Of a stretch of DNA of 64,000 nucleotides, positions 1 to 9,205 are shown one piece after another (position 1 is the stretch's first letter; the number at the start of each line of letters is the position of its first letter). The stretch is from IMG/VR virus record IMGVR_UViG_3300032265_001591, positions 1 through 64,000 of that record; one strand, written 5' to 3'. A program made the translations under genes and the position numbers. Below the pieces are notes generated by a model. That model was given only the letters and a program-made list of their open reading frames with translations, did not search any database and was not told where the DNA came from. Source of the stretch: a virus.

Positions 1-26
1 CTTCAGAATCAAAGGGTTAGACCCAG

Positions 27-135
27 GGCCACCAGTGGTATGGCACCCTCAGACCATACTGGGTATGGTAGGGCCATCAGTAGCCCCTTCCCTGGGGAAC
101 CATACCATACCCAGTATGGCCACCAGTGGTATGGC
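27..135. repeat. Nested direct and inverted repeats
   Basis: 18-bp direct repeat GGCCACCAGTGGTATGGC at 27-44 and 118-135; 17-bp inverted repeat CCATACTGGGTATGGTA at 54-70 / 103-119; many CCATAC/GTATGG units. Confidence 0.85.
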
Positions 136-207
136 CTGGGGACTGCCATACCATACACAGTGGGACTCATTCACACCAACTCCTATGGTACCACCTGCAC
201 AAAATTG

Positions 208-236
208 TGTACATATATTCATAAATGATATATGAT
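208..236 (+). promoter_or_regulatory. Sigma70-like phage early promoter with no downstream ORF
   Basis: TGTACA-17 nt-TATGAT, same consensus and spacer (TCATAAA) as the cassette promoters. Confidence 0.65.
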
Positions 237-354
237 GGTATGGCCTGGGACTCGACCCACGTCAGCGTTCAGACTACGTTTCTGTCACGCAGGCGCCCCG
301 TCCACCCCGGGAACTCCCCATCGACTGAGTCACTAAGCGTCAGACTATGAGCAG

Positions 355-383
355 ATTCTACCTTTTATGAATAAATATGTACA
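355..383 (-). promoter_or_regulatory. Leftward sigma70-like early promoter
   Basis: Reverse complement reads GTGTACA-TATTTATTCATAAAAGG(17)-TAGAAT. Confidence 0.7.
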
Positions 384-487
384 CCCTTCCTTCACCAGGA
401 TTCACCAGGATTCCCTGGGTCTAGACCTGTGTACATAATTAATGCATAAATGTAGAATGGTCTCCTAAACTGAATAAAGGAATGAAC

Positions 488-766
488 ATGACTGAAGACC
501 AACTGATGGCGGCGATGTCGATGAAGAACCGGCACTCCAGGAACTTCCTCATGTGCCTGGACCCGCAGGCCAGCGACTTCGACCAGCAAGTGGCAAGCCT
601 CCGGCGAGTGGCTCGCGTCAGTGGGCGTGGCATCAGGATTCGTGGTCGCCTGGGGAAGAACAACCCGCACCGACACCTGTATGCGGTAGGCGGCTCGCTG
701 TACCGGCCTAGCAGCCAGGACATTCGCATTGAGCACTCCGTGCGGGTTGACATCTACCTGAAGTAG
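488..766 (+). CDS. Hypothetical early protein (basic)
   Basis: ATG 6 nt after AAAGGA of cassette 1; GC3-rich codons. Confidence 0.8.
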   Translation: MTEDQLMAAMSMKNRHSRNFLMCLDPQASDFDQQVASLRRVARVSGRGIRIRGRLGKNNPHRHLYAVGGSLYRPSSQDIRIEHSVRVDIYLK

Positions 767-848
767 CGCCGACCCAGGGACACCTGGGGCCTGTACATAA
801 TTAATGCATAAATGTAGAATGGTCACCTCAATGCAAAAAGGAATCGAC

Positions 849-1025
849 ATGAACAACATCGACATCGAAGACATGGGCGCGGACGACCTGATGAACATCC
901 TGTTGACCCAGGGTCAGGACGCCTTCGAGGACGCCTTCAGTCAGTGGTACACCGACGAGAACCAGACCGTGTACGACCTGGTGATTCAACTGGTCGACCT
1001 GGTGAAGACCAACGCTTGCATGTAA
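849..1025 (+). CDS. Hypothetical early protein (acidic)
   Basis: ATG after cassette 2 RBS. Confidence 0.8.
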   Translation: MNNIDIEDMGADDLMNILLTQGQDAFEDAFSQWYTDENQTVYDLVIQLVDLVKTNACM

Positions 1026-1124
1026 AGAGTCCCTGGGTTCCCTGGTGAAATGATTCACCAGGGGCCTGTACATAATTAATGCATAAATGTAGAATGGCCT
1101 CCTAAACTGAATAAAGGAATCACC

Positions 1125-1325
1125 ATGATTAACGAAAAAGACGTCGAGATCCTCTTGGCCAATCTGTCCACCGGCACCGAGACGGAGTTCGCCAACCTGC
1201 TGTTCAACTTCATGCAGGCCGGTCTCGTCGACAAGGACCGGTTCCGGGACATCATCATCGGTGCCCGGGCGAAGGCCTACGACGACGGAATGGACGCGAA
1301 TTCTGACCGAGGCATTTGGACCTAA
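1125..1325 (+). CDS. Hypothetical early protein
   Basis: ATG after cassette 3 RBS. Confidence 0.8.
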   Translation: MINEKDVEILLANLSTGTETEFANLLFNFMQAGLVDKDRFRDIIIGARAKAYDDGMDANSDRGIWT

Positions 1326-1390
1326 CACGGCCTGTACATAATTAATTCATAAAGGTAGAATGGCTACCTCAGTTAAATAAAGGAATCATC

Positions 1391-1948
1391 ATGAACGACA
1401 TCACCTCCGCCCTTGCTTCCCTCAACGTCCCGGTTGGCACCAGCATCACCGAGGCCGTCAAGAACGTCCGCACCTACATCCAGGGCGACCTGGACCCCAC
1501 CGGCGAACTGGCTCGTGCCTACTCTGTGGCAGAGTCCCTGGGCGTCACTGACCCGGCCTCCATCCTGGGTGACAAGCCCCAGCGAGCCCGACTGTTTGCC
1601 ACCAGCCTGGTGGCCAGTGCCCTGGCGGTACCTACTCGGTTCGACGTCAAGGAAGCCATTGACACCGCCATCGAAAAGGTTGCCAACCTGGAGAAGATGG
1701 GTGTGGTGTCCAAGGGTACCAAGGAACCCAAGGCCAAGGTCGAGAAGCCGGTCAAGGCTCCCAAGGCGACCGGCACCAAGGCTCCTCGTGCCCCTTCGAC
1801 CCACGTCAACCTGGCCCAGGCCATCGCCATCTACCAGGCTGATCCCGGCTGCCGAGTGTACGACCTGGTGACCCGTGTGGCCGAGGCCTACAACGTCGAC
1901 CGCAACAAGGCCTACTCCATCCTTCACCGGGCTCGGAAGGCGGCCTGA
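1391..1948 (+). CDS. Hypothetical early protein, K/P/A-rich linker and possible C-terminal HTH
   Basis: ATG after cassette 4; 185 aa; basic helical C-terminus. Confidence 0.8.
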   Translation: MNDITSALASLNVPVGTSITEAVKNVRTYIQGDLDPTGELARAYSVAESLGVTDPASILGDKPQRARLFATSLVASALAVPTRFDVKEAIDTAIEKVANLEKMGVVSKGTKEPKAKVEKPVKAPKATGTKAPRAPSTHVNLAQAIAIYQADPGCRVYDLVTRVAEAYNVDRNKAYSILHRARKAA

Positions 1949-2065
1949 CCCAGGGCCTTCACCAGGGTACTCGTCCAACGGGGTACCCTGGTGAATCACC
2001 AGGCCTGTGTACATAATTAATCATAAAGTGTAGAATGGCTTCACAATATGGAAAAAGGAATGAAC

Positions 2066-2233
2066 ATGGCCACTCGACTTGACTACCTCCGCGATTGTGT
2101 TGCTGCCCTCCAGGAAGAACTGGCGGGCTACCTGGTGAACGGCGCCACGCCGGAAACCATCGAGGCCGTGACTTACGACCTGAACTGGCACCTGGATGCC
2201 TTCGAGGTCGAATACAACCTTGACTGCCAATAG
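2066..2233 (+). CDS. Hypothetical early protein
   Basis: ATG after cassette 5 RBS. Confidence 0.8.
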   Translation: MATRLDYLRDCVAALQEELAGYLVNGATPETIEAVTYDLNWHLDAFEVEYNLDCQ

Positions 2234-2243
2234 GAGGAACACC

Positions 2244-2423
2244 ATGAAGTACAGCGTTCACAGTCGTCTGACGGAATCCACCAGCTACCCCATCCAGTGG
2301 TACGTCTGCGACGAGCTCGGTCGGTGGGTTCACACCGAACCCTTCCTGACCAAGGAGATGGCCGAGGAATTCCTGAAGGGGTTCCTGGTGTGGGTTGAAT
2401 CAACTGAACCGGGAGTCCTTTAA
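2244..2423 (+). CDS. Hypothetical protein
   Basis: AGGAGG RBS then ATG. Confidence 0.75.
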   Translation: MKYSVHSRLTESTSYPIQWYVCDELGRWVHTEPFLTKEMAEEFLKGFLVWVESTEPGVL

Positions 2424-2632
2424 TGAGCAAGGGTATCACTCAAAAGATGGCTGACAAGATGGTCGAATACCGCATCATTGGTATGAATTCATTCGGGCCA
2501 TTCACTCACGGTCCGGATATCAAGTCATACGCCAAGGCGGTCAAGGAACTTGAGGGATATCGGAAGCGCCCGCATTCACCGTCGACCACCTATACGCTAA
2601 TCGAAGTCACTTGCACCGCCCTTCCAGTCTAG
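2423..2632 (+). CDS. Hypothetical protein
   Basis: TAATG stop/start coupling. Confidence 0.75.
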   Translation: MSKGITQKMADKMVEYRIIGMNSFGPFTHGPDIKSYAKAVKELEGYRKRPHSPSTTYTLIEVTCTALPV

Positions 2633-2697
2633 GAGGCCTGTGTACATTAATTCGCATAAAGTATAAGATCTATCCATATTCAAAAAGGAACTGATCA

Positions 2698-2892
2698 ATG
2701 AAGCTGCAGGTCACCATTGGTAACGACTTCACCATGAACACCACGCCCCAGGCCCTGGGTCGCTGCTTCAGCCAGGAGGACGCCAGCATCCTGAAAGACA
2801 TGCTGAACCTGTCGGCGGTCCTTCACCTGGAAGGCGAGAGCGTCAACCAGTACATCGACGGCGTCCGTTACGCCGTCACCGTCATCAAGTAA
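2698..2892 (+). CDS. Hypothetical early protein
   Basis: ATG after cassette 6. Confidence 0.8.
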   Translation: MKLQVTIGNDFTMNTTPQALGRCFSQEDASILKDMLNLSAVLHLEGESVNQYIDGVRYAVTVIK

Positions 2893-2902
2893 GGAGAATA
2901 CC

Positions 2903-3070
2903 ATGAGCAACCCCCTTGTGAACAACTTTTTCATTGACATGTTGCTGATCATCCTCCGCGACCAGGGCGAGGAAACCTTCTTCAAGCGTACCTTCAATGC
3001 CAAGGAGTATGGGCTCCTGAACCAGGAGGAATTCGAGTTCCTGATGGAAAAGGCTCTGGCCATCATCTAA
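2903..3070 (+). CDS. Hypothetical 55-aa protein (not in ORF track)
   Basis: AAGGAG RBS; MSNPLVNNFF...ALAII*. Confidence 0.75.
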   Translation: MSNPLVNNFFIDMLLIILRDQGEETFFKRTFNAKEYGLLNQEEFEFLMEKALAII

Positions 3071-3135
3071 AGGCCTGTGTACATTATTTGGTCATAAATG
3101 TAGAATAGCTACATCAAATGAATAAAGGAATGAAC

Positions 3136-3387
3136 ATGAACTACCGCAACGACATCCTTGACATGACCCGCCTGTACACCGCCCAGGAGTACAACCTCCC
3201 GGTGGCCAGCTACTGCTTGGCCCAAGCGGTTGAGCAGGTCGCTGATTACTGGTTCGAAGGCAACTTCGAGTTTGACTGCGGCATGGACGCGCAGGAAGCC
3301 GTGTGGACTGCCGGGTTGGTCCACATGGTGATGGTGAAGTACTTCGAGCTGGAACAGGAGGCCAACGTTCGTGGCGCAATGTTTTAA
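3136..3387 (+). CDS. Hypothetical early protein
   Basis: ATG after cassette 7. Confidence 0.8.
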   Translation: MNYRNDILDMTRLYTAQEYNLPVASYCLAQAVEQVADYWFEGNFEFDCGMDAQEAVWTAGLVHMVMVKYFELEQEANVRGAMF

Positions 3388-3451
3388 GGCCTGTGTACAT
3401 TAATTAGTCATAAAGGTAGAATAGCTCCATCAAATGGAAAAAGGAATCGAC

Positions 3452-3736
3452 ATGAACTACGCCTTCAACATCCTCGTCACCCTCCTTGCCACTCGCGCTG
3501 CCAACTCCCTGGGTCTGACCCTGGGCATGAAGAAGGTCGACCGCCTGGTCCGCGAAGCCACCGAGATCGTGGTGATGGACTGGTGCGAATTCGACTACGA
3601 CAAGGACGCCCAGTGGCTGGAACTGATCGCCAGCGTGGAAGCCGGTTCGGATGACGGCGAGGACCTGGTGAGTGCCATCATCAGTCAGATGAACTTCATG
3701 GGCACCCTCGTCCAGGTTGAACGCCTGGCGGCCTAA
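3452..3736 (+). CDS. Hypothetical early protein
   Basis: ATG after cassette 8. Confidence 0.8.
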   Translation: MNYAFNILVTLLATRAANSLGLTLGMKKVDRLVREATEIVVMDWCEFDYDKDAQWLELIASVEAGSDDGEDLVSAIISQMNFMGTLVQVERLAA

Positions 3737-3800
3737 GGCCTGTGTACATTAATTAGTCATAAAGGTAGAATGGTATCACCAAATGAATAAAGGAATGAAC

Positions 3801-4040
3801 ATGAAACTCTTCATCATCACCGACGTCCTTTCCGACTACACCACCGGCATGGTGGCCATCAAGGCCGAGTCCCTGGAACAGGCTCGTGAGTTCTTTGTGA
3901 AAGGCCAGTCCGAGTACATCGAGAGCGTCATCGAGGAATTTGATGACGCCATCAAGAATGGTTGCTACACCGAATTCGACCTGGCGGACACCGACGACAA
4001 AGATTCGGGTGTCATCGTTGAGGTTTATGGTGGCGGTTAG
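3801..4040 (+). CDS. Hypothetical early protein (acidic, ends VYGGG)
   Basis: ATG after cassette 9. Confidence 0.8.
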   Translation: MKLFIITDVLSDYTTGMVAIKAESLEQAREFFVKGQSEYIESVIEEFDDAIKNGCYTEFDLADTDDKDSGVIVEVYGGG

Positions 4041-4112
4041 TCACCAGGAACCTGTGTACATTAATTGCGCATAAAGGTAGAATAGCTCCATCAAATGGAA
4101 AAAGGAATCGAC

Positions 4113-4388
4113 ATGAAAAACGCATACCCCCGGTTGTCCCAAGAAGCAAAGACCAGCTGGAGATCCACTTACATGGATTTCTCCAAGAAGTCCCTTAAGA
4201 ACGCTCTGGCTACCATGAAAGACTACATTGAAATGGAAGGCGATGCTGAAGCTGTTCGCGAAGTCCAGGAGGCCTTGAAGAAGTGCCTGGACATTGTCAC
4301 TGACCTGGGCAAGAAAGAAGACGAGGCGATACGTGAATCGTACAAGAAGCGTGTGCGTGAGGAGTCTGAACAGGAAGCCATGGGTTAA
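4113..4388 (+). CDS. Hypothetical early protein (helical)
   Basis: ATG after cassette 10. Confidence 0.8.
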   Translation: MKNAYPRLSQEAKTSWRSTYMDFSKKSLKNALATMKDYIEMEGDAEAVREVQEALKKCLDIVTDLGKKEDEAIRESYKKRVREESEQEAMG

Positions 4389-4476
4389 TGACAACCCTGG
4401 TGATTCACCAGGAACCTGTGTACATTAATTAGTCATAAAGGTACAATGGCTACATCAAATGAATAAAGGAATCACC

Positions 4477-4665
4477 ATGACGCACACCGAACAGCTCGAC
4501 CTCCTGACCTCGCGCTTCCCGGACGCCAACTCCATCCTCAAGGTGGACGGCCTCTGGGAAGTGACCGAGTTTATCGGCGACATCAGCGAGGAGCGTGACC
4601 TCTACGCCTACGTCCCTGGGACCAAGAAGTTCAATTTCATCGGTCACATTTCAGTCGAAATCTAA
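4477..4665 (+). CDS. Hypothetical early protein
   Basis: ATG after cassette 11. Confidence 0.8.
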   Translation: MTHTEQLDLLTSRFPDANSILKVDGLWEVTEFIGDISEERDLYAYVPGTKKFNFIGHISVEI

Positions 4666-4676
4666 GGAGACACACC

Positions 4677-4913
4677 ATGCCTTCCATGTCATACTGCATG
4701 TTCGAGAACACCACCCTCGAGATGGATCAGATCCTCAACACCCTCGAGGAGGCCCTTGAACGGGGCCAGGACCTCAAGCTCTCGCGCGACGAACAGTACG
4801 CCTACGACCGGCTGGTCTTCCAATGCAAGCGGTTCCTTCGGTTCCAGGACCTCACGGCAGAAGAGGTTGACCTGACCGATAGCTGCTACATCGACGCCGA
4901 CGACCTGGTCTAA
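4677..4913 (+). CDS. Hypothetical protein (MSYCMFENT N-terminus)
   Basis: AAGGAG RBS; 78-aa ORF. Confidence 0.8.
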   Translation: MPSMSYCMFENTTLEMDQILNTLEEALERGQDLKLSRDEQYAYDRLVFQCKRFLRFQDLTAEEVDLTDSCYIDADDLV

Positions 4914-4923
4914 GGAGGACCAC

Positions 4924-5010
4924 ATGGAATATCTGACTGAGCTGACGATTTTGCTGTCCGTCGTGTGCCTCTGGGCCGTTCAAGCCTGGAATACCAGGAA
5001 TAACAAGTAA
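4924..5010 (+). CDS. 28-aa single-TM peptide
   Basis: AAGGAGG RBS; MEYLTELTILLSVVCLWAVQAWNTRNNK. Confidence 0.7.
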   Translation: MEYLTELTILLSVVCLWAVQAWNTRNNK

Positions 5011-5020
5011 GGAGGACCAC

Positions 5021-5098
5021 ATGGACTACATTTCAGAACTGATGATTGGCCTGGCCGTTTTCACCTACATCACTGTCCAAATCTGGGGGGACAAGTAA
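5021..5098 (+). CDS. 25-aa single-TM peptide
   Basis: AAGGAGG RBS; MDYISELMIGLAVFTYITVQIWGDK. Confidence 0.7.
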   Translation: MDYISELMIGLAVFTYITVQIWGDK

Positions 5099-5203
5099 AT
5101 GACCGCTGCCGACCTGGTCGAGGTAACCACCATCATCACCGTTGGCTGCTTGATCTACCTGCTGCTGTGGTGGCTCCAGGGCGGGGACCTCAAGGATGAT
5201 TAG
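5099..5203 (+). CDS. 34-aa single-TM peptide
   Basis: Starts immediately after previous stop; MTAADLVEVTTIITVGCLIYLLLWWLQGGDLKDD. Confidence 0.65.
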   Translation: MTAADLVEVTTIITVGCLIYLLLWWLQGGDLKDD

Positions 5204-5798
5204 TCCCGCCTAGCCTAGTCCCGCCTGGCCTGCCCAGCCCAGCCTAATCCCGCCCTACCTGCCCAGCAGCCAACCCTACCCCAGGTCCACGGCTGCGAGG
5301 GCTACAACACCCGCCACCACGGTCCACTAGTACTCCCCGCTAGGTACTAGATGGACCGTTGCCTTATGCGTGACCCGTGCAGACCCCCAGCCAGACCCAG
5401 GGGCTAACCTAGGGTAACCGGCAGGGGAGGGGTGGGAAGACCGGTTCCCTGGTGATCGGGGTCCGAACAATGGCGGCAAATCCAGAACAATGGCCATAGT
5501 GGAAAACTGGGTCCCATATTCTTCGCTGGGGACCCCATATATATGGATTCCTTAATTCTCTATGGGACTTCTACACATCACCTCCAGACTCTTACATGCA
5601 TTCTCTAAGGATCCACCACACACTTCTAAAAAACTTCCGTTTTCCAATCTAAGAGTTACTTCTAAGAACTGCATAAGAAAAAATTTCCGGGCCAGAAAAA
5701 TTCAAAAAACCCTCATTCAAATAAGAAGGCTATATACAATATACTCTATTCTGTATATAATCTCTTTATACTCTATAACAAAAGGAATATTTAAGTCT

Positions 5799-6224
5799 AT
5801 GAAAGATTATCTAACTGTTGGTATCACTGCAAGCTGTTTTGATCTGTTCCATGCTGGTCATGTACTCATGTTGGAAGAAGCTAAGGAGCACTGTCAGTAC
5901 CTGATTGCTGCTCTGCAGACCGACCCCACGCTGGACAGGCCGGAGAAGATGAAACCGATCCAGTCTGTATACGAGAGGTTTGTTCAGTTGTCTGCTTGTA
6001 AGTATGTGGACGAGGTTGTAGTCTATGATACCGAAGCTGACCTTCTGAATGTGCTGTCGTCTAGGCCGATCGATGTTCGGATCCTTGGCGAGGAGTACAT
6101 GAATAAAGAGTTTACCGGTAAGCACCTGGATCTCTTTGAGTGTGTGTTTAATAAGCGGCATCATTCCTATAGTAGTACTGAGCTGAAGCGGCGGATCGTT
6201 AAGCGTATGAGCAGTGGGGTCTGA
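5799..6224 (+). CDS. Cytidylyltransferase, glycerol-3-phosphate cytidylyltransferase (TagD)-like
   Basis: FDLFHAGH (HIGH) motif, YSSTELK C-terminal motif; start moved to ATG 5799. Confidence 0.85.
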   Translation: MKDYLTVGITASCFDLFHAGHVLMLEEAKEHCQYLIAALQTDPTLDRPEKMKPIQSVYERFVQLSACKYVDEVVVYDTEADLLNVLSSRPIDVRILGEEYMNKEFTGKHLDLFECVFNKRHHSYSSTELKRRIVKRMSSGV

Positions 6225-6438: not shown

Positions 6439-6686
6439 ACTACAAGCACAAGTATAATGGTTTCTCTTACGAGCCTGTTCAGTCCGGTAAGGGTGATAAG
6501 TACAACTTGGTTCATAACGTGACTAACACACAAACAAATGAAACTTTTCAAGCTGAGTTTACTCCTTATTGTCATATGAGTAAGATTGACTTTGAGAACT
6601 ACATCGACCTTGGATGTCCGCCTAAGCGTGAAGTACGAATGCTGTCAAGTGATACTCTTCGACGTATGAAAAATAAACAGCTATAA
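6435..6686 (+). CDS. Hypothetical protein
   Basis: TTG start overlapping previous stop, GGAG upstream. Confidence 0.65.
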   Translation: MNYKHKYNGFSYEPVQSGKGDKYNLVHNVTNTQTNETFQAEFTPYCHMSKIDFENYIDLGCPPKREVRMLSSDTLRRMKNKQL

Positions 6687-6689
6687 ATA
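6682..6689 (+). promoter_or_regulatory. T4-type late promoter upstream of speD-pqqA
   Basis: Exact TATAAATA. Confidence 0.65.
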
Positions 6690-6716: not shown

Positions 6717-7067
6717 ATGGCTTTAGGGTACCATACGATTCTTGAGTGCTACGAGTGTGATGAGGATTTACTCAAGGACCAGGCTATGCTTGAAGAATAC
6801 TTAGTCGCTTCAGCTCAAGAGGCGAGTGCTACTGTTCTTCATACTTATTTTCATAAGTTTGATCGGGGTGAAGGAGTGACCGGCGTGATTGCTTTGTCTG
6901 AATCCCACATCTCCGTTCACACCTGGCCTGAATATGGTTACATGGCCATCGACATCTTCATGTGCGGTGACAGCAATCCAATCGATGCTGCTGACTTCTT
7001 AATAAATAATTTAAGGATCGGGAAGTTTTCGATCAATACGATCAACCGTGGGGATGACTTTACTTAA
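6717..7067 (+). CDS. speD: S-adenosylmethionine decarboxylase proenzyme
   Basis: LSESHISVHTWPE autocleavage motif, DIFMCG. Confidence 0.92.
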   Translation: MALGYHTILECYECDEDLLKDQAMLEEYLVASAQEASATVLHTYFHKFDRGEGVTGVIALSESHISVHTWPEYGYMAIDIFMCGDSNPIDAADFLINNLRIGKFSINTINRGDDFT

Positions 7068-7078
7068 GGAGAACTCTT

Positions 7079-7150
7079 ATGTGGACAACACCAACATTTA
7101 ATGATGTACGTTTTGGCTTTGAAGTCACCATGTACATTCATACTCGATAA
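7079..7150 (+). CDS. pqqA: Pyrroloquinoline quinone precursor peptide
   Basis: MWTTPTFNDVRFGFEVTMYIHTR (23 aa): W-x-x-P, RFGFEVTMY with the E-x3-Y core; AAGGAG RBS. Confidence 0.93.
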   Translation: MWTTPTFNDVRFGFEVTMYIHTR

Positions 7151-7235
7151 GTATATAATATATCTGAAACAACACCCGTGACGCCTCTCCATGAAGCGCA
7201 CCAGCACGGGTTTTTAACCTTGAGGAAAGTAAATA

Positions 7236-7871
7236 ATGGCATTGATTCAAGCAGCACTCGATACTCTAGACTATGAACAAACAATTCGTCTAGCACAACG
7301 CATCTCACCCTATGTAGATATCATTGAACTCGGCACTCCATGTGTCAAATATAATGGTATTCGTATTGTTGAAACTGTTCACACATTGATTCCAAAGTGT
7401 CTAACACTTGCCGATCTTAAGACGATGGATGCTGGGTATTATGAAGCATTACCATTCTACGAAGTTGGGGCTGATATCGTCACCGTTCTTGGTGCTGCTG
7501 ATGCTGGTACAATCAAAGGAGTAGTTGAAGCGTCTAAGACTACTAAAGCCCAAGCACAAGTTGATCTTATTAATGTAAAGAATAAGCTAGAAACAGTTGC
7601 ACTTGCTTATGAGCTTGGTGCTCATATTATTGGTGTACATACTGGACTAGATCAGCAAGCAAAAGGTCAGACTCCTTTTGAAGATCTAAGGAAAGTTCAG
7701 CAAATGAAAGTTGGTCTAAAGATCTCTGTTGCTGGTGGTATCAATAAAGATACTGTTCGTCAAGCAATTGATGCTGGTGCTGATATCGTTGTAGTAGGTG
7801 CAGCGATCTACGGTGCTGCTGATCCTGTTCGCGCTGCAGCTGAGATTTGGGAAGCTGTTGAACGTGGCTAA
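7236..7871 (+). CDS. hxlA: 3-hexulose-6-phosphate synthase (HPS, RuMP pathway)
   Basis: ALD, IELGTP, DLKTMDAG, GVHTGLDQQA.GQTPF, VAGG, GAAIYGA motifs typical of methylotroph HPS. Confidence 0.95.
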   Translation: MALIQAALDTLDYEQTIRLAQRISPYVDIIELGTPCVKYNGIRIVETVHTLIPKCLTLADLKTMDAGYYEALPFYEVGADIVTVLGAADAGTIKGVVEASKTTKAQAQVDLINVKNKLETVALAYELGAHIIGVHTGLDQQAKGQTPFEDLRKVQQMKVGLKISVAGGINKDTVRQAIDAGADIVVVGAAIYGAADPVRAAAEIWEAVERG

Positions 7872-8430
7872 TTATTCTGATGTTCTTGATATTGTAAGAG
7901 ACGAACTACTTTATACCGAAAAGGAAACATGTCAGCAGCTTATTGATGTACTCATTCATACGATAAGTCGGAAAGAACATTATAACGGTGGAAGAGTGTT
8001 TATTGCTGCTGCTGGTAGATCTAAGATGGTTGCCAATATGTTTGCGATGCGAATGATGCATTGTGGGCTAAATGTGCAGGTAGTTGGAGAAACTACTACA
8101 ACTCAGATAACGAGATTTGATTCGCTTCTTCTTGTTTCCGGTTCGGGTGAGACTAAGCAGTTAATTACTTTTGCTGAGAAGGCAAAGTCAGTTCGTTCTG
8201 AAGTATTGTTAGTTACAGCAAATCCAACTTCTACTCTTAGGAATATGGCTGATGAGGTTTTTCAGATTGGTCCATCAAGTAGAGCTCTGTCTACAAACAA
8301 GAATCTTCCTCTTGGTAGCAGGTTTGAACTCTCTACTATGATATTCTTTGAGACAGTCATTCTTAATTTTATGGAACAACTTCAATTAAATGAAGATAAT
8401 CTAAGAGACTGTCATACTAACTTAGAATAA
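7864..8430 (+). CDS. hxlB: 6-phospho-3-hexuloisomerase (PHI, SIS fold)
   Basis: AGRS, FAMR.MH.G, VVGE, SGSGET, PLGSRFE, HTNLE C-terminus; GTG start overlapping hxlA stop. Confidence 0.92.
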   Translation: MANYSDVLDIVRDELLYTEKETCQQLIDVLIHTISRKEHYNGGRVFIAAAGRSKMVANMFAMRMMHCGLNVQVVGETTTTQITRFDSLLLVSGSGETKQLITFAEKAKSVRSEVLLVTANPTSTLRNMADEVFQIGPSSRALSTNKNLPLGSRFELSTMIFFETVILNFMEQLQLNEDNLRDCHTNLE

Positions 8431-8439
8431 TAAATAGTA

Positions 8440-8753
8440 TTGTTGGTATGGTCGTATGAAGTAAAGGGAAGGTATTCTGGACGCGGGTGCGAATCCCGCC
8501 ACCTCCACCAAAAGCATATTGGGATAAGCTTTCGTGTTTAGGCTTTAGAGTGCCGTATTAACGCCAATATGCTTTTGACGGGGGTGACTAGATTCGACAG
8601 GGTAAGATACTGATACAGACGACTCGGTAGGCGATGACCGTAAATCAAGCAAAAAATATAAAAGCCAACGATGACTTTTACGGAGATTATGCACTAGCTG
8701 CATAATTCTTCTGGGGTTTCGCCAGCTGTCCTTATTACCCAATCAGCTGGCAC
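8440..8753 (+). ncRNA. ssrA: Circularly permuted (two-piece) tmRNA
   Basis: T-arm and CACCUCC-A-CCA end at 8510 precede a hairpin spacer and the GGGGGUG 5' acceptor strand at 8580 (G3.U70 pair); tag frame 8664-8705 ANDDFYGDYALAA*; outer ends approximate. Confidence 0.9.
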
Positions 8754-8776
8754 TATTTAATCATTAGAGTTTTATT

Positions 8777-9205
8777 ATGGATACTCACCCGCGAAAGCGG
8801 AATCAAAAGATTCTTGACTTCCTCTCCAAAGCCGCTGAAGCCGCAGACCATGCCGGTATACGTGCTAAGTTAGCAGCCGCAGTTGTCATCAAAAATGAGA
8901 TTATTTCAATTGGATTCAATCGTAGAAAAACTCATCCCTTTCAAGCACAGTTTCAAACAAATGAACAACAGATTTATTTACATGCTGAAACCGATGCTAT
9001 CAATCGAGCACTCAAATACGTAACAAAAGAAGAGTTGCGCAAAGCTACTCTTTACGTTGCTCGTGTAAAATATAAAGACGGACGAAATAAACAAGCTATT
9101 TGGGCTGAGAGCAAACCGTGTATTGGTTGCCAAAAAGCCATCAAATCATATGGAATTGTTAATGTTATTCATACTTGCGATGGGGGTGTATACAAATCTA
9201 TCTAA
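8777..9205 (+). CDS. Cytidine/dCMP deaminase-family zinc protein
   Basis: HAE and PCxxC motifs. Confidence 0.8.
   Translation: MDTHPRKRNQKILDFLSKAAEAADHAGIRAKLAAAVVIKNEIISIGFNRRKTHPFQAQFQTNEQQIYLHAETDAINRALKYVTKEELRKATLYVARVKYKDGRNKQAIWAESKPCIGCQKAIKSYGIVNVIHTCDGGVYKSI

Follow-up and report, generated by a model that had tools for sequence, protein, structure and literature searches.

Why would a phage encode the peptide from which a host cofactor is made and, on the sequence at hand, none of the enzymes that make it? The question is raised by a stretch of 64,000 nucleotides (the window), which makes up the leading 64 kb of an IMG/VR virus record of 73,723 bases (IMGVR_UViG_3300032265_001591; CheckV completeness ~44%), and in which an earlier note, made from the letters of the sequence, had placed a stand-alone pqqA gene, encoding the precursor peptide of pyrroloquinoline quinone (PQQ). 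Our analysis indicates that this short open reading frame (ORF) belongs to a family of lone viral pqqA genes held by selection, and that it most probably serves as a functional auxiliary metabolic gene (AMG), feeding substrate peptide to the PqqB-E enzymes of the host.

At the level of sequence, the earlier call is confirmed, and the ORF at 7079-7150 on the plus strand is a genuine PqqA gene. Its translation, MWTTPTFNDVRFGFEVTMYIHTR followed by a stop codon, scores 43.5 bits against the Pfam PqqA family PF08042 (cut-off 21.1, E 2.8e-11) across the full model (1-19 of 19), and 43.9 bits against TIGR02107, the NCBIfam PqqA equivalog (cut-off 20). When the whole 73,723-base record was searched in six frames, exactly one PqqA site was returned (41.3 bits, E 2.2e-11), so that the match lies far beyond chance; a peptide search of PDB gave no match. 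The frame opens just seven codons 5' of the ATG at 7079, which is its sole start, no ATG, GTG or TTG lying between the upstream stop (7055-7057) and that position, and the AAGGAG ribosome-binding site (RBS) described earlier is indeed found 7 nucleotides (nt) before it, at 7066-7071. W2, P5, R11 and G13 are present, corresponding to the N-terminal W-x-x-P ... R-x-G of PqqA that is presumably recognized by PqqD/PqqE, and the Glu-x-x-x-Tyr pair is intact (E15-V-T-M-Y19). The carbons and nitrogens in PQQ all come from PqqA's Glu and Tyr, and PQQ is no longer synthesized when E is changed to D or Y is changed to F (PMC2294125), which also upholds the description of PqqA as a consumed substrate of the pathway.

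Profile searches for pqqB, pqqC, pqqD, pqqE and a PQQ-dependent alcohol dehydrogenase found none on the whole 73,723-base record, so that the reported lack of pqqB-E in the window extends to the rest of the record as well. The pqqC model, which had given no match in control genomes, was then checked on five named genomes of Methylophilaceae, a family of betaproteobacterial methylotrophs, and matched in 5/5 at >330 bits. Adjacency to pqqB-E, typical of pqqA without defining it, is thus missing on the contig; this is not disqualifying, since Methylophilaceae genomes have several pqqA copies far from pqqC. Because the contig is ~44% complete, “stand-alone” describes the contig and not the whole phage genome.

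To see how the gene behaves in related phages, relatives were collected from IMG/VR by hxlA, the gene that follows pqqA in the window and a query that does not select for pqqA. Six IMG/VR contigs (L249, L250, L251, L252, L257 and L258) share the block formed by hxlA, hxlB and a transfer-messenger RNA (tmRNA), and in three of them (L250, L251 and L252) an intact 23-codon pqqA lies at the same position. The peptides of these three have diverged, yet W2, P5, R11, G13, E15 and Y19 are retained in all, and even where the core has become GFEISLY, as in L251 and L252, Glu and Tyr are kept. Pairwise ratios of nonsynonymous to synonymous differences (pN/pS) for pqqA in this set are 0.39, 0.30 and 0.22, with pS of up to 0.68 and synonymous sites near saturation, and of the 19 differences between the window and L251, 9 are synonymous, against an expectation of 21% (binomial p = 0.011); in the corresponding hxlA comparison, pN/pS rows with L249 were left out because of an indel shift. 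L249 (IMGVR_UViG_3300032248_000908), whose hxlA is 96% identical, has no pqqA before hxlA and carries an intact copy ~3 kb downstream of it on the minus strand, a placement indicating that the micro-gene moves within the clade, and L257 and L258 have no pqqA within 3 kb of hxlA.

Additionally, a degenerate DNA motif for the FGFEVTMY core was scanned in IMG/VR and in bacteria, the resulting counts being lower bounds. At least 120 IMG/VR contigs match, and 120/120 of the matches listed contain an intact PqqA ORF of 23-25 amino acids, with no pqqB-E, hxlA/B or speH in the 1.02 Mb of flanks around these 120. The listed viral matches include 112 ORFs of 23 codons, representing 100 distinct DNA sequences and 40 peptides, in which the codons outside the search motif give a pN/pS of 0.26; W2, P5 and R11, though unconstrained by the motif, are invariant among the 100 distinct sequences listed. 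Judged by these substitution patterns, viral pqqA is kept under purifying selection and is not debris.

Among GenBank phages, tblastn located pqqA in Melnitz (four isolates), P19250A, Venkman, MEP301, MEP401/402 and a Manatee Spring podovirus, and together with Pfam it placed PqqA, at 37-43 bits and always above the cut-off, in cultured phages of Methylophilales that represent no fewer than four unrelated types. Neither pqqC nor pqqE was found in five complete phage genomes carrying pqqA (Melnitz-1, P19250A, Venkman, MEP301 and MEP402). The earlier suggestion that a phage may carry only this gene of the pathway finds support in these five genomes; for the present phage it is unproven, as the contig covers less than half of the genome and a methanol dehydrogenase has been reported in relatives from Lake Baikal. 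None of the cultured-phage GenBank records examined annotates pqqA, which is either left blank or replaced by an antisense call: a “hypothetical protein” is annotated antisense over it in Melnitz-1 (MZ577095.1, 74882-74953) and in MW202481.1 (2119-2187), and nothing is annotated at that place in the records of P19250A, Venkman, MEP301 and MEP402. Gene callers with a 90-nt floor miss pqqA and at times call an antisense ORF, as in the Melnitz and Manatee Spring records. The Melnitz pqqA ends ~10 nt before a gene for tRNA-Leu (a transfer RNA, tRNA). Two matches in “Acinetobacter phage MD-2021a” (CAKLQF020000010.1) were rejected as a phage example; with a chromosomal-looking pqqABCDE operon between ppk (polyphosphate kinase) and a membrane dipeptidase gene, that record looks like bacterial DNA under a phage name.

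In the hosts, PqqA is present in 61/61 sampled Methylophilaceae genomes, in 1-12 dispersed copies (median 4; at least 2 in 59 genomes), and even the streamlined 1.3-Mb genome of Ca. Methylopumilus has three copies, all far from pqqC. Scanned with one genome per species, bacteria yielded listed motif matches almost only in methylotrophs, namely Methylophilaceae, Methylococcales and Methylophaga. In Klebsiella, PqqA is ~20-fold in excess of PqqC/PqqE (PMC2294125), a Hyphomicrobium strain has five pqqA copies (PMC9851590), and methylotrophs have several copies that are differentially expressed (PMC9851590, citing Ge et al. 2015). A dispersed, stand-alone, multi-copy pqqA is therefore the design of the host itself, and it fits a need for far more peptide than enzyme.

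The viral gene does not appear to have been acquired recently from such a host. At the nucleotide level, similarity between viral pqqA and bacterial loci (74-85% identity) goes no further than the ORF and up to ~75 nt besides, and the window copy matches its best sampled bacterial locus over just 88 nt at 74%, on which ground an attachment (att) site or recent host capture was rejected. This low similarity marks it as an old resident of phage genomes and not as a fresh capture or att remnant, with which the pattern of hxlA agrees, its identity being 85-96% within the viral cluster and then falling to ~60-63% against Methylophilaceae. For the sample, the idea that pqqA and hxlA came from a host together, as a single block, was likewise rejected, hxlA/B occurring near 0/120 of the bacterial pqqA loci listed (flanks of up to 8 kb). 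We thus consider it very improbable that pqqA is a neutral passenger, whether a fragment picked up from host DNA or a leftover of an att site or of recombination, without a role in the phage: the dispersed host copies, 1-12 per genome, do provide many chances for capture, and the position of the gene varies among close relatives, but 120/120 listed viral copies are intact, pN/pS stays at 0.2-0.4 with synonymous sites saturated, the short extent of similarity to bacterial loci fits neither recent capture nor att-like identity, and pqqA is present in strictly T4-like phages.

Selection evidence of this kind tells that the peptide sequence matters and not what it is used for, which leaves room for a purpose other than PQQ, with the peptide acting as a decoy for host PqqD/PqqE or for a PqqF-type protease, or as a regulatory or signaling peptide that re-tunes one-carbon metabolism. 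The C-terminal tail of the window peptide, unlike that of all sampled bacterial copies, would suit such a role. Nevertheless, we regard it as improbable, since the peptide retains all residues that PQQ formation is known to require, whereas loss of Glu or Tyr would be expected in a decoy, and the co-location with hxlA/hxlB and the reported viral methanol dehydrogenase point to boosting methylotrophy and not to blocking it. Moreover, among the matches listed, the peptide variants most often seen in viruses have the same sequence as those most often seen in Methylophilaceae. The window peptide has no identical bacterial counterpart among those matches, the best agreeing at 17/23 positions. With regard to tails, 109/120 listed viral copies are of the ...NK type and the window has the rarer ...R type; among listed bacterial matches, ...NK-tail PqqA is mostly orphan (28 versus 10 beside pqqB) and ...R-tail PqqA mostly operon-linked (33 beside pqqB versus 18 orphan). 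Treating these tails as orphan and operon classes was rejected, and the distinction was not used, as it is a statistical tendency confounded by taxonomy.

The contig on which this pqqA lies is that of a T4-like myovirus. Its genes include those for baseplate wedge proteins of T4 type, for tail proteins and for a class I ribonucleotide reductase, it carries six tRNAs and a two-piece tmRNA, and megablast of 5 kb of the window against the phage collection gave no match. Similarity of hxlA, the tmRNA type and the phage relatives make Methylophilaceae the most likely host. Guanine-cytosine (GC) content is ~54% at 1-5,560, 39-44% at 5.6-9.2 kb and 33-36% at 9-64 kb, and the GC-rich first part holds 9-10 copies of a 70-94 nt promoter-plus-RBS cassette (TGTACA-N17-TAGAAT, AAAGGAAT, ATG), each followed by a small ORF. 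Composition jumps near 5,560, and pqqA is on the phage-core side of this step. The core of the promoter-like motif in the cassette, TGTAC-N18-TAnnAT, occurs at 18 sites in the window versus 0.8 expected, 14 of them within 185-4447 and the others at 7131, 26844, 31043 and 37780, and of the three in the AT-rich core two are directly upstream of tRNA genes. Given this motif on both sides of the GC step, we read the contig as one genome, a chimeric join being unlikely, and a chimeric contig was rejected as an explanation of pqqA for the same reason and because the gene is contiguous with the hxlAB-tmRNA block shared by six viral contigs. Viral signals (phage genes, tRNAs, the tmRNA and the promoter-like motif) accordingly flank pqqA on both sides, with the caveat that the first 5.56 kb are at 54% GC.

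The immediate surroundings of pqqA are collected in Table 1. Upstream, speH ends 11 nt 5' of pqqA and its stop codon adjoins the pqqA RBS, an adjacency that is not conserved in the relatives. Downstream come hxlA and hxlB, whose products are the two signature enzymes of formaldehyde fixation by the ribulose monophosphate (RuMP) pathway, and, with pqqA ahead of them, the block reads as a small one-carbon module. The earlier note makes no mention of these two neighbors. The identity of hxlA is 85-96% in four IMG/VR contigs and 72-75% in two others, and its nearest named bacterial proteins, at ~60-63%, are those of Methylophilaceae; hxlB, the start of which overlaps the hxlA end, follows hxlA in 6/6 relatives. 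The tmRNA stands directly after hxlB, a position conserved in the relatives, and overlaps both the hxlB end and the start of the dCMP deaminase ORF. The cytidylyltransferase-like gene opens the moderately GC-enriched AMG block.

Table 1. Sequence features around pqqA, in window coordinates
Feature	Coordinates	Strand	Evidence and remarks
Cytidylyltransferase-like gene	~5790-6224		PF01467, 53.4 bits
T4-type late-promoter-like box TATAAATA	6682..6689	+	28 nt upstream of speH start; possible promoter of a speH-pqqA transcript
speH-type S-adenosylmethionine decarboxylase gene	6717..7067	+	PF02675, 127.5 bits; TIGR03330, 129 bits (cut-off 75.65)
Shine-Dalgarno AAGGAG	7066..7071	+	7 nt before pqqA ATG; invariant in L250, L251 and L252
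pqqA, PQQ precursor peptide gene, 23 codons	7079..7150	+	PF08042, TIGR02107; residues W2, P5, R11, G13, E15, Y19
Promoter-like TGTACA-N17-TATAAT	7131..7159	+	First hexamer = pqqA codons 18-20; second lies 3 nt past the pqqA stop; points to hairpin and hxlA
Two-tier hairpin, outer stem ACCCGTG/CACGGGT, then TTTTT	7174..7216	+	Candidate terminator or attenuator between pqqA and hxlA
hxlA, 3-hexulose-6-phosphate synthase (RuMP)	7236..7871	+	TIGR03128, 232.9 bits (cut-off 200)
hxlB, 6-phospho-3-hexuloisomerase	7864..8430	+	TIGR03127, 164 bits (cut-off 160); start uncertain, GTG 7864 or TTG 7858
Two-piece (permuted) tmRNA, betaproteobacterial type	8408..8796	+	ARAGORN tag ANDDFYGDYALAA; RF01850 beta_tmRNA, 121.5 bits (cut-off 84); RF04321, 147.1 bits
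dCMP deaminase ORF	8777-9205		Next after tmRNA

Between pqqA and hxlA, the spacer (7151-7235) is 87% conserved, above the synonymous sites of both genes, and the CGATAAGTATATAAT box that completes the promoter-like site is invariant in L250, L251 and L252. The consensus fold of the hairpin comprises 13 pairs, two of which, in the outer stem, show compensatory changes between the window and the others; this covariation reflects one event only, and the predicted hairpin is based on conservation and the two compensatory pairs. A simple terminator scan did not call it, as its loop exceeds 8 nt, and its core was not found in the 61 Methylophilaceae genomes. The hairpin may serve hxlAB as a leader or attenuator peculiar to the phage, and we infer from the fold prediction a possible terminator or attenuator at which the pqqA message would stop and which would control whether hxlAB is reached by read-through or re-initiation.

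Such elements might suggest that this DNA is kept in the clade mainly as a regulatory element for hxlA-hxlB, with coding secondary: the promoter-like site at 7131-7159 overlaps the 3' end of pqqA, and its box and the spacer are conserved above synonymous sites. The motif, however, takes in no more of pqqA than its final 20 nt, whereas conservation extends over the full ORF together with its start and RBS; in L249 and L258 the hairpin and hxlA are present although pqqA is missing from that spot; and more than 100 contigs conserve a lone pqqA that has no hxlA near it. We rate this explanation as hardly probable. Also conceivable is a phage-assembled one-carbon cassette made up of pqqA, a phage promoter with its first hexamer in the last pqqA codons, a conserved structured leader or terminator, the virus-encoded RuMP genes hxlA-hxlB and the tmRNA, where the hairpin would be a phage-specific switch that sets a short pqqA message against hxlAB read-through. 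We put this forward tentatively, as a possibility that we favor somewhat less than its opposite.

Returning to pqqA as a functional AMG, the 23-residue peptide would be translated from the AAGGAG site in the infected cell, probably on one transcript with speH, terminated at the hairpin. Host PqqD/PqqE would then bind the peptide and cross-link Glu15 to Tyr19, and host proteases, PqqB and PqqC would finish PQQ. The added peptide would keep or raise PQQ for the periplasmic methanol dehydrogenase XoxF/MxaF, providing the phage with methanol-derived energy and carbon, and phage HxlA/HxlB would draw the resulting formaldehyde into fructose-6-phosphate or, running in reverse, offer an alternative supply of pentose phosphate for nucleotides.

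Several points weigh against this proposal. The benefit of pqqA to the phage is one that we infer. PQQ is stable and reusable, so a limiting supply within one infection cycle is not obvious unless new apo-dehydrogenase is made, and none is encoded on the contig, which represents just ~44% of the genome; nothing in the analysis supports the claim of the earlier note that PqqA would run out first after host shut-off. With its unusual C-terminal tail (IHTR) and a best bacterial match of 17/23, compatibility of the window peptide with host PqqD/E is assumed, and the relatives L249, L257 and L258 indicate that pqqA is dispensable at this position. As for its expression, the promoter and terminator assignments are motif and fold predictions: the late-promoter-like box TATAAATA is a weak lead, not being enriched in the window (6 sites versus 7.5 expected), and the 101-nt region after pqqA folds no more stably than its shuffles (z = 0.09).

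Methylotroph phages exert control over bacteria that tie methanol and further one-carbon compounds into the carbon cycle, and a phage supplying the only ingredient that the PQQ pathway consumes would reveal the step at which methanol oxidation is limited during infection. To this the locus adds clear selection evidence for a very small gene, as well as a direct physical link to phage-borne formaldehyde-fixing genes. Besides, a lone pqqA is a near-universal and mostly unannotated mark of Methylophilaceae phages, which makes it useful for host prediction.

The novelty of a viral pqqA, implied in the earlier note, was overstated. In 2020, Coutinho et al. (Microbiome 8:163, PMC7678222) described PqqA in the Lake Baikal phage population VP_266, which is T4-like, has ~35% GC and a predicted Methylophilaceae host, and proposed the same role, boosting PQQ for methanol oxidation. 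In full-text searches of the literature, pqqA was met in a viral auxiliary metabolic context only in that study and in one 2026 reservoir study, and searches for hexulose or ribulose-monophosphate with viral AMG terms found no report of viral hxlA/hxlB. The idea of a lone viral pqqA is hence already published; what is distinctive here is its context with hxlA-hxlB, a physical link that seems to be unreported.

The Baikal population resembles the present phage in its T4-like type, its GC content (a core of 33-36% here versus ~35%) and its PqqA gene. It differs in that Baikal representatives are reported with a methanol dehydrogenase (PMC7678222), of which there is none on this 73.7-kb contig, and in that hexulose-phosphate genes have 0 occurrences in PMC7678222, whereas pqqA here is directly upstream of hxlA-hxlB. 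The reference list of the same article includes the Bacillus subtilis CTP:glycerol-3-phosphate cytidylyltransferase paper, which may point to a gene like that at 5790-6224 of the window.

The cultured Methylophilales phages (Melnitz, Venkman, MEP301, MEP401/402 and P19250A) share with the window an intact PqqA of 23-24 amino acids with the RFGFEVTMY core and an RBS, and Melnitz, an OM43 phage, is in addition a T4-like myophage with a two-piece tmRNA. Their peptides, however, are 56-68% identical to that of the window and mostly end in a “...VMNK” tail, in contrast to its “...R” tail, none was found with hxlA/hxlB, and the tmRNA described in the Melnitz paper as alphaproteobacterial-like contrasts with the betaproteobacterial type scored here. 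The papers on Melnitz, Venkman and MEP301 nowhere contain the word “pqqA”, and the first of them mentions PQQ only as a medium supplement.

On the host side, the closest parallel is the orphan or multi-copy pqqA of Methylophilaceae and other methylotrophs such as Hyphomicrobium (PMC9851590) and Methylovorus sp. MP688 (Ge et al. 2015, as cited there), which is of the same family and length and stands alone far from pqqB-E. The phage gene has the look of a further orphan copy, supplied in trans. It is distinguished by being virus-encoded, by its similarity of just ~74% over 88 nt to the best bacterial locus sampled and by its position amid regulatory elements of the phage, which the 61 genomes of the host family were not found to contain.

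Beyond methylotrophs, a comparable case is that of cyanophage psbA and similar AMGs, where the phage encodes only the fast-turnover or consumed part of a host energy system and draws the rest from the host. The logic of phage pqqA would be the same, with one difference in the fate of the product: the psbA subunit is damaged and replaced, whereas PqqA is chemically consumed into a small-molecule cofactor.

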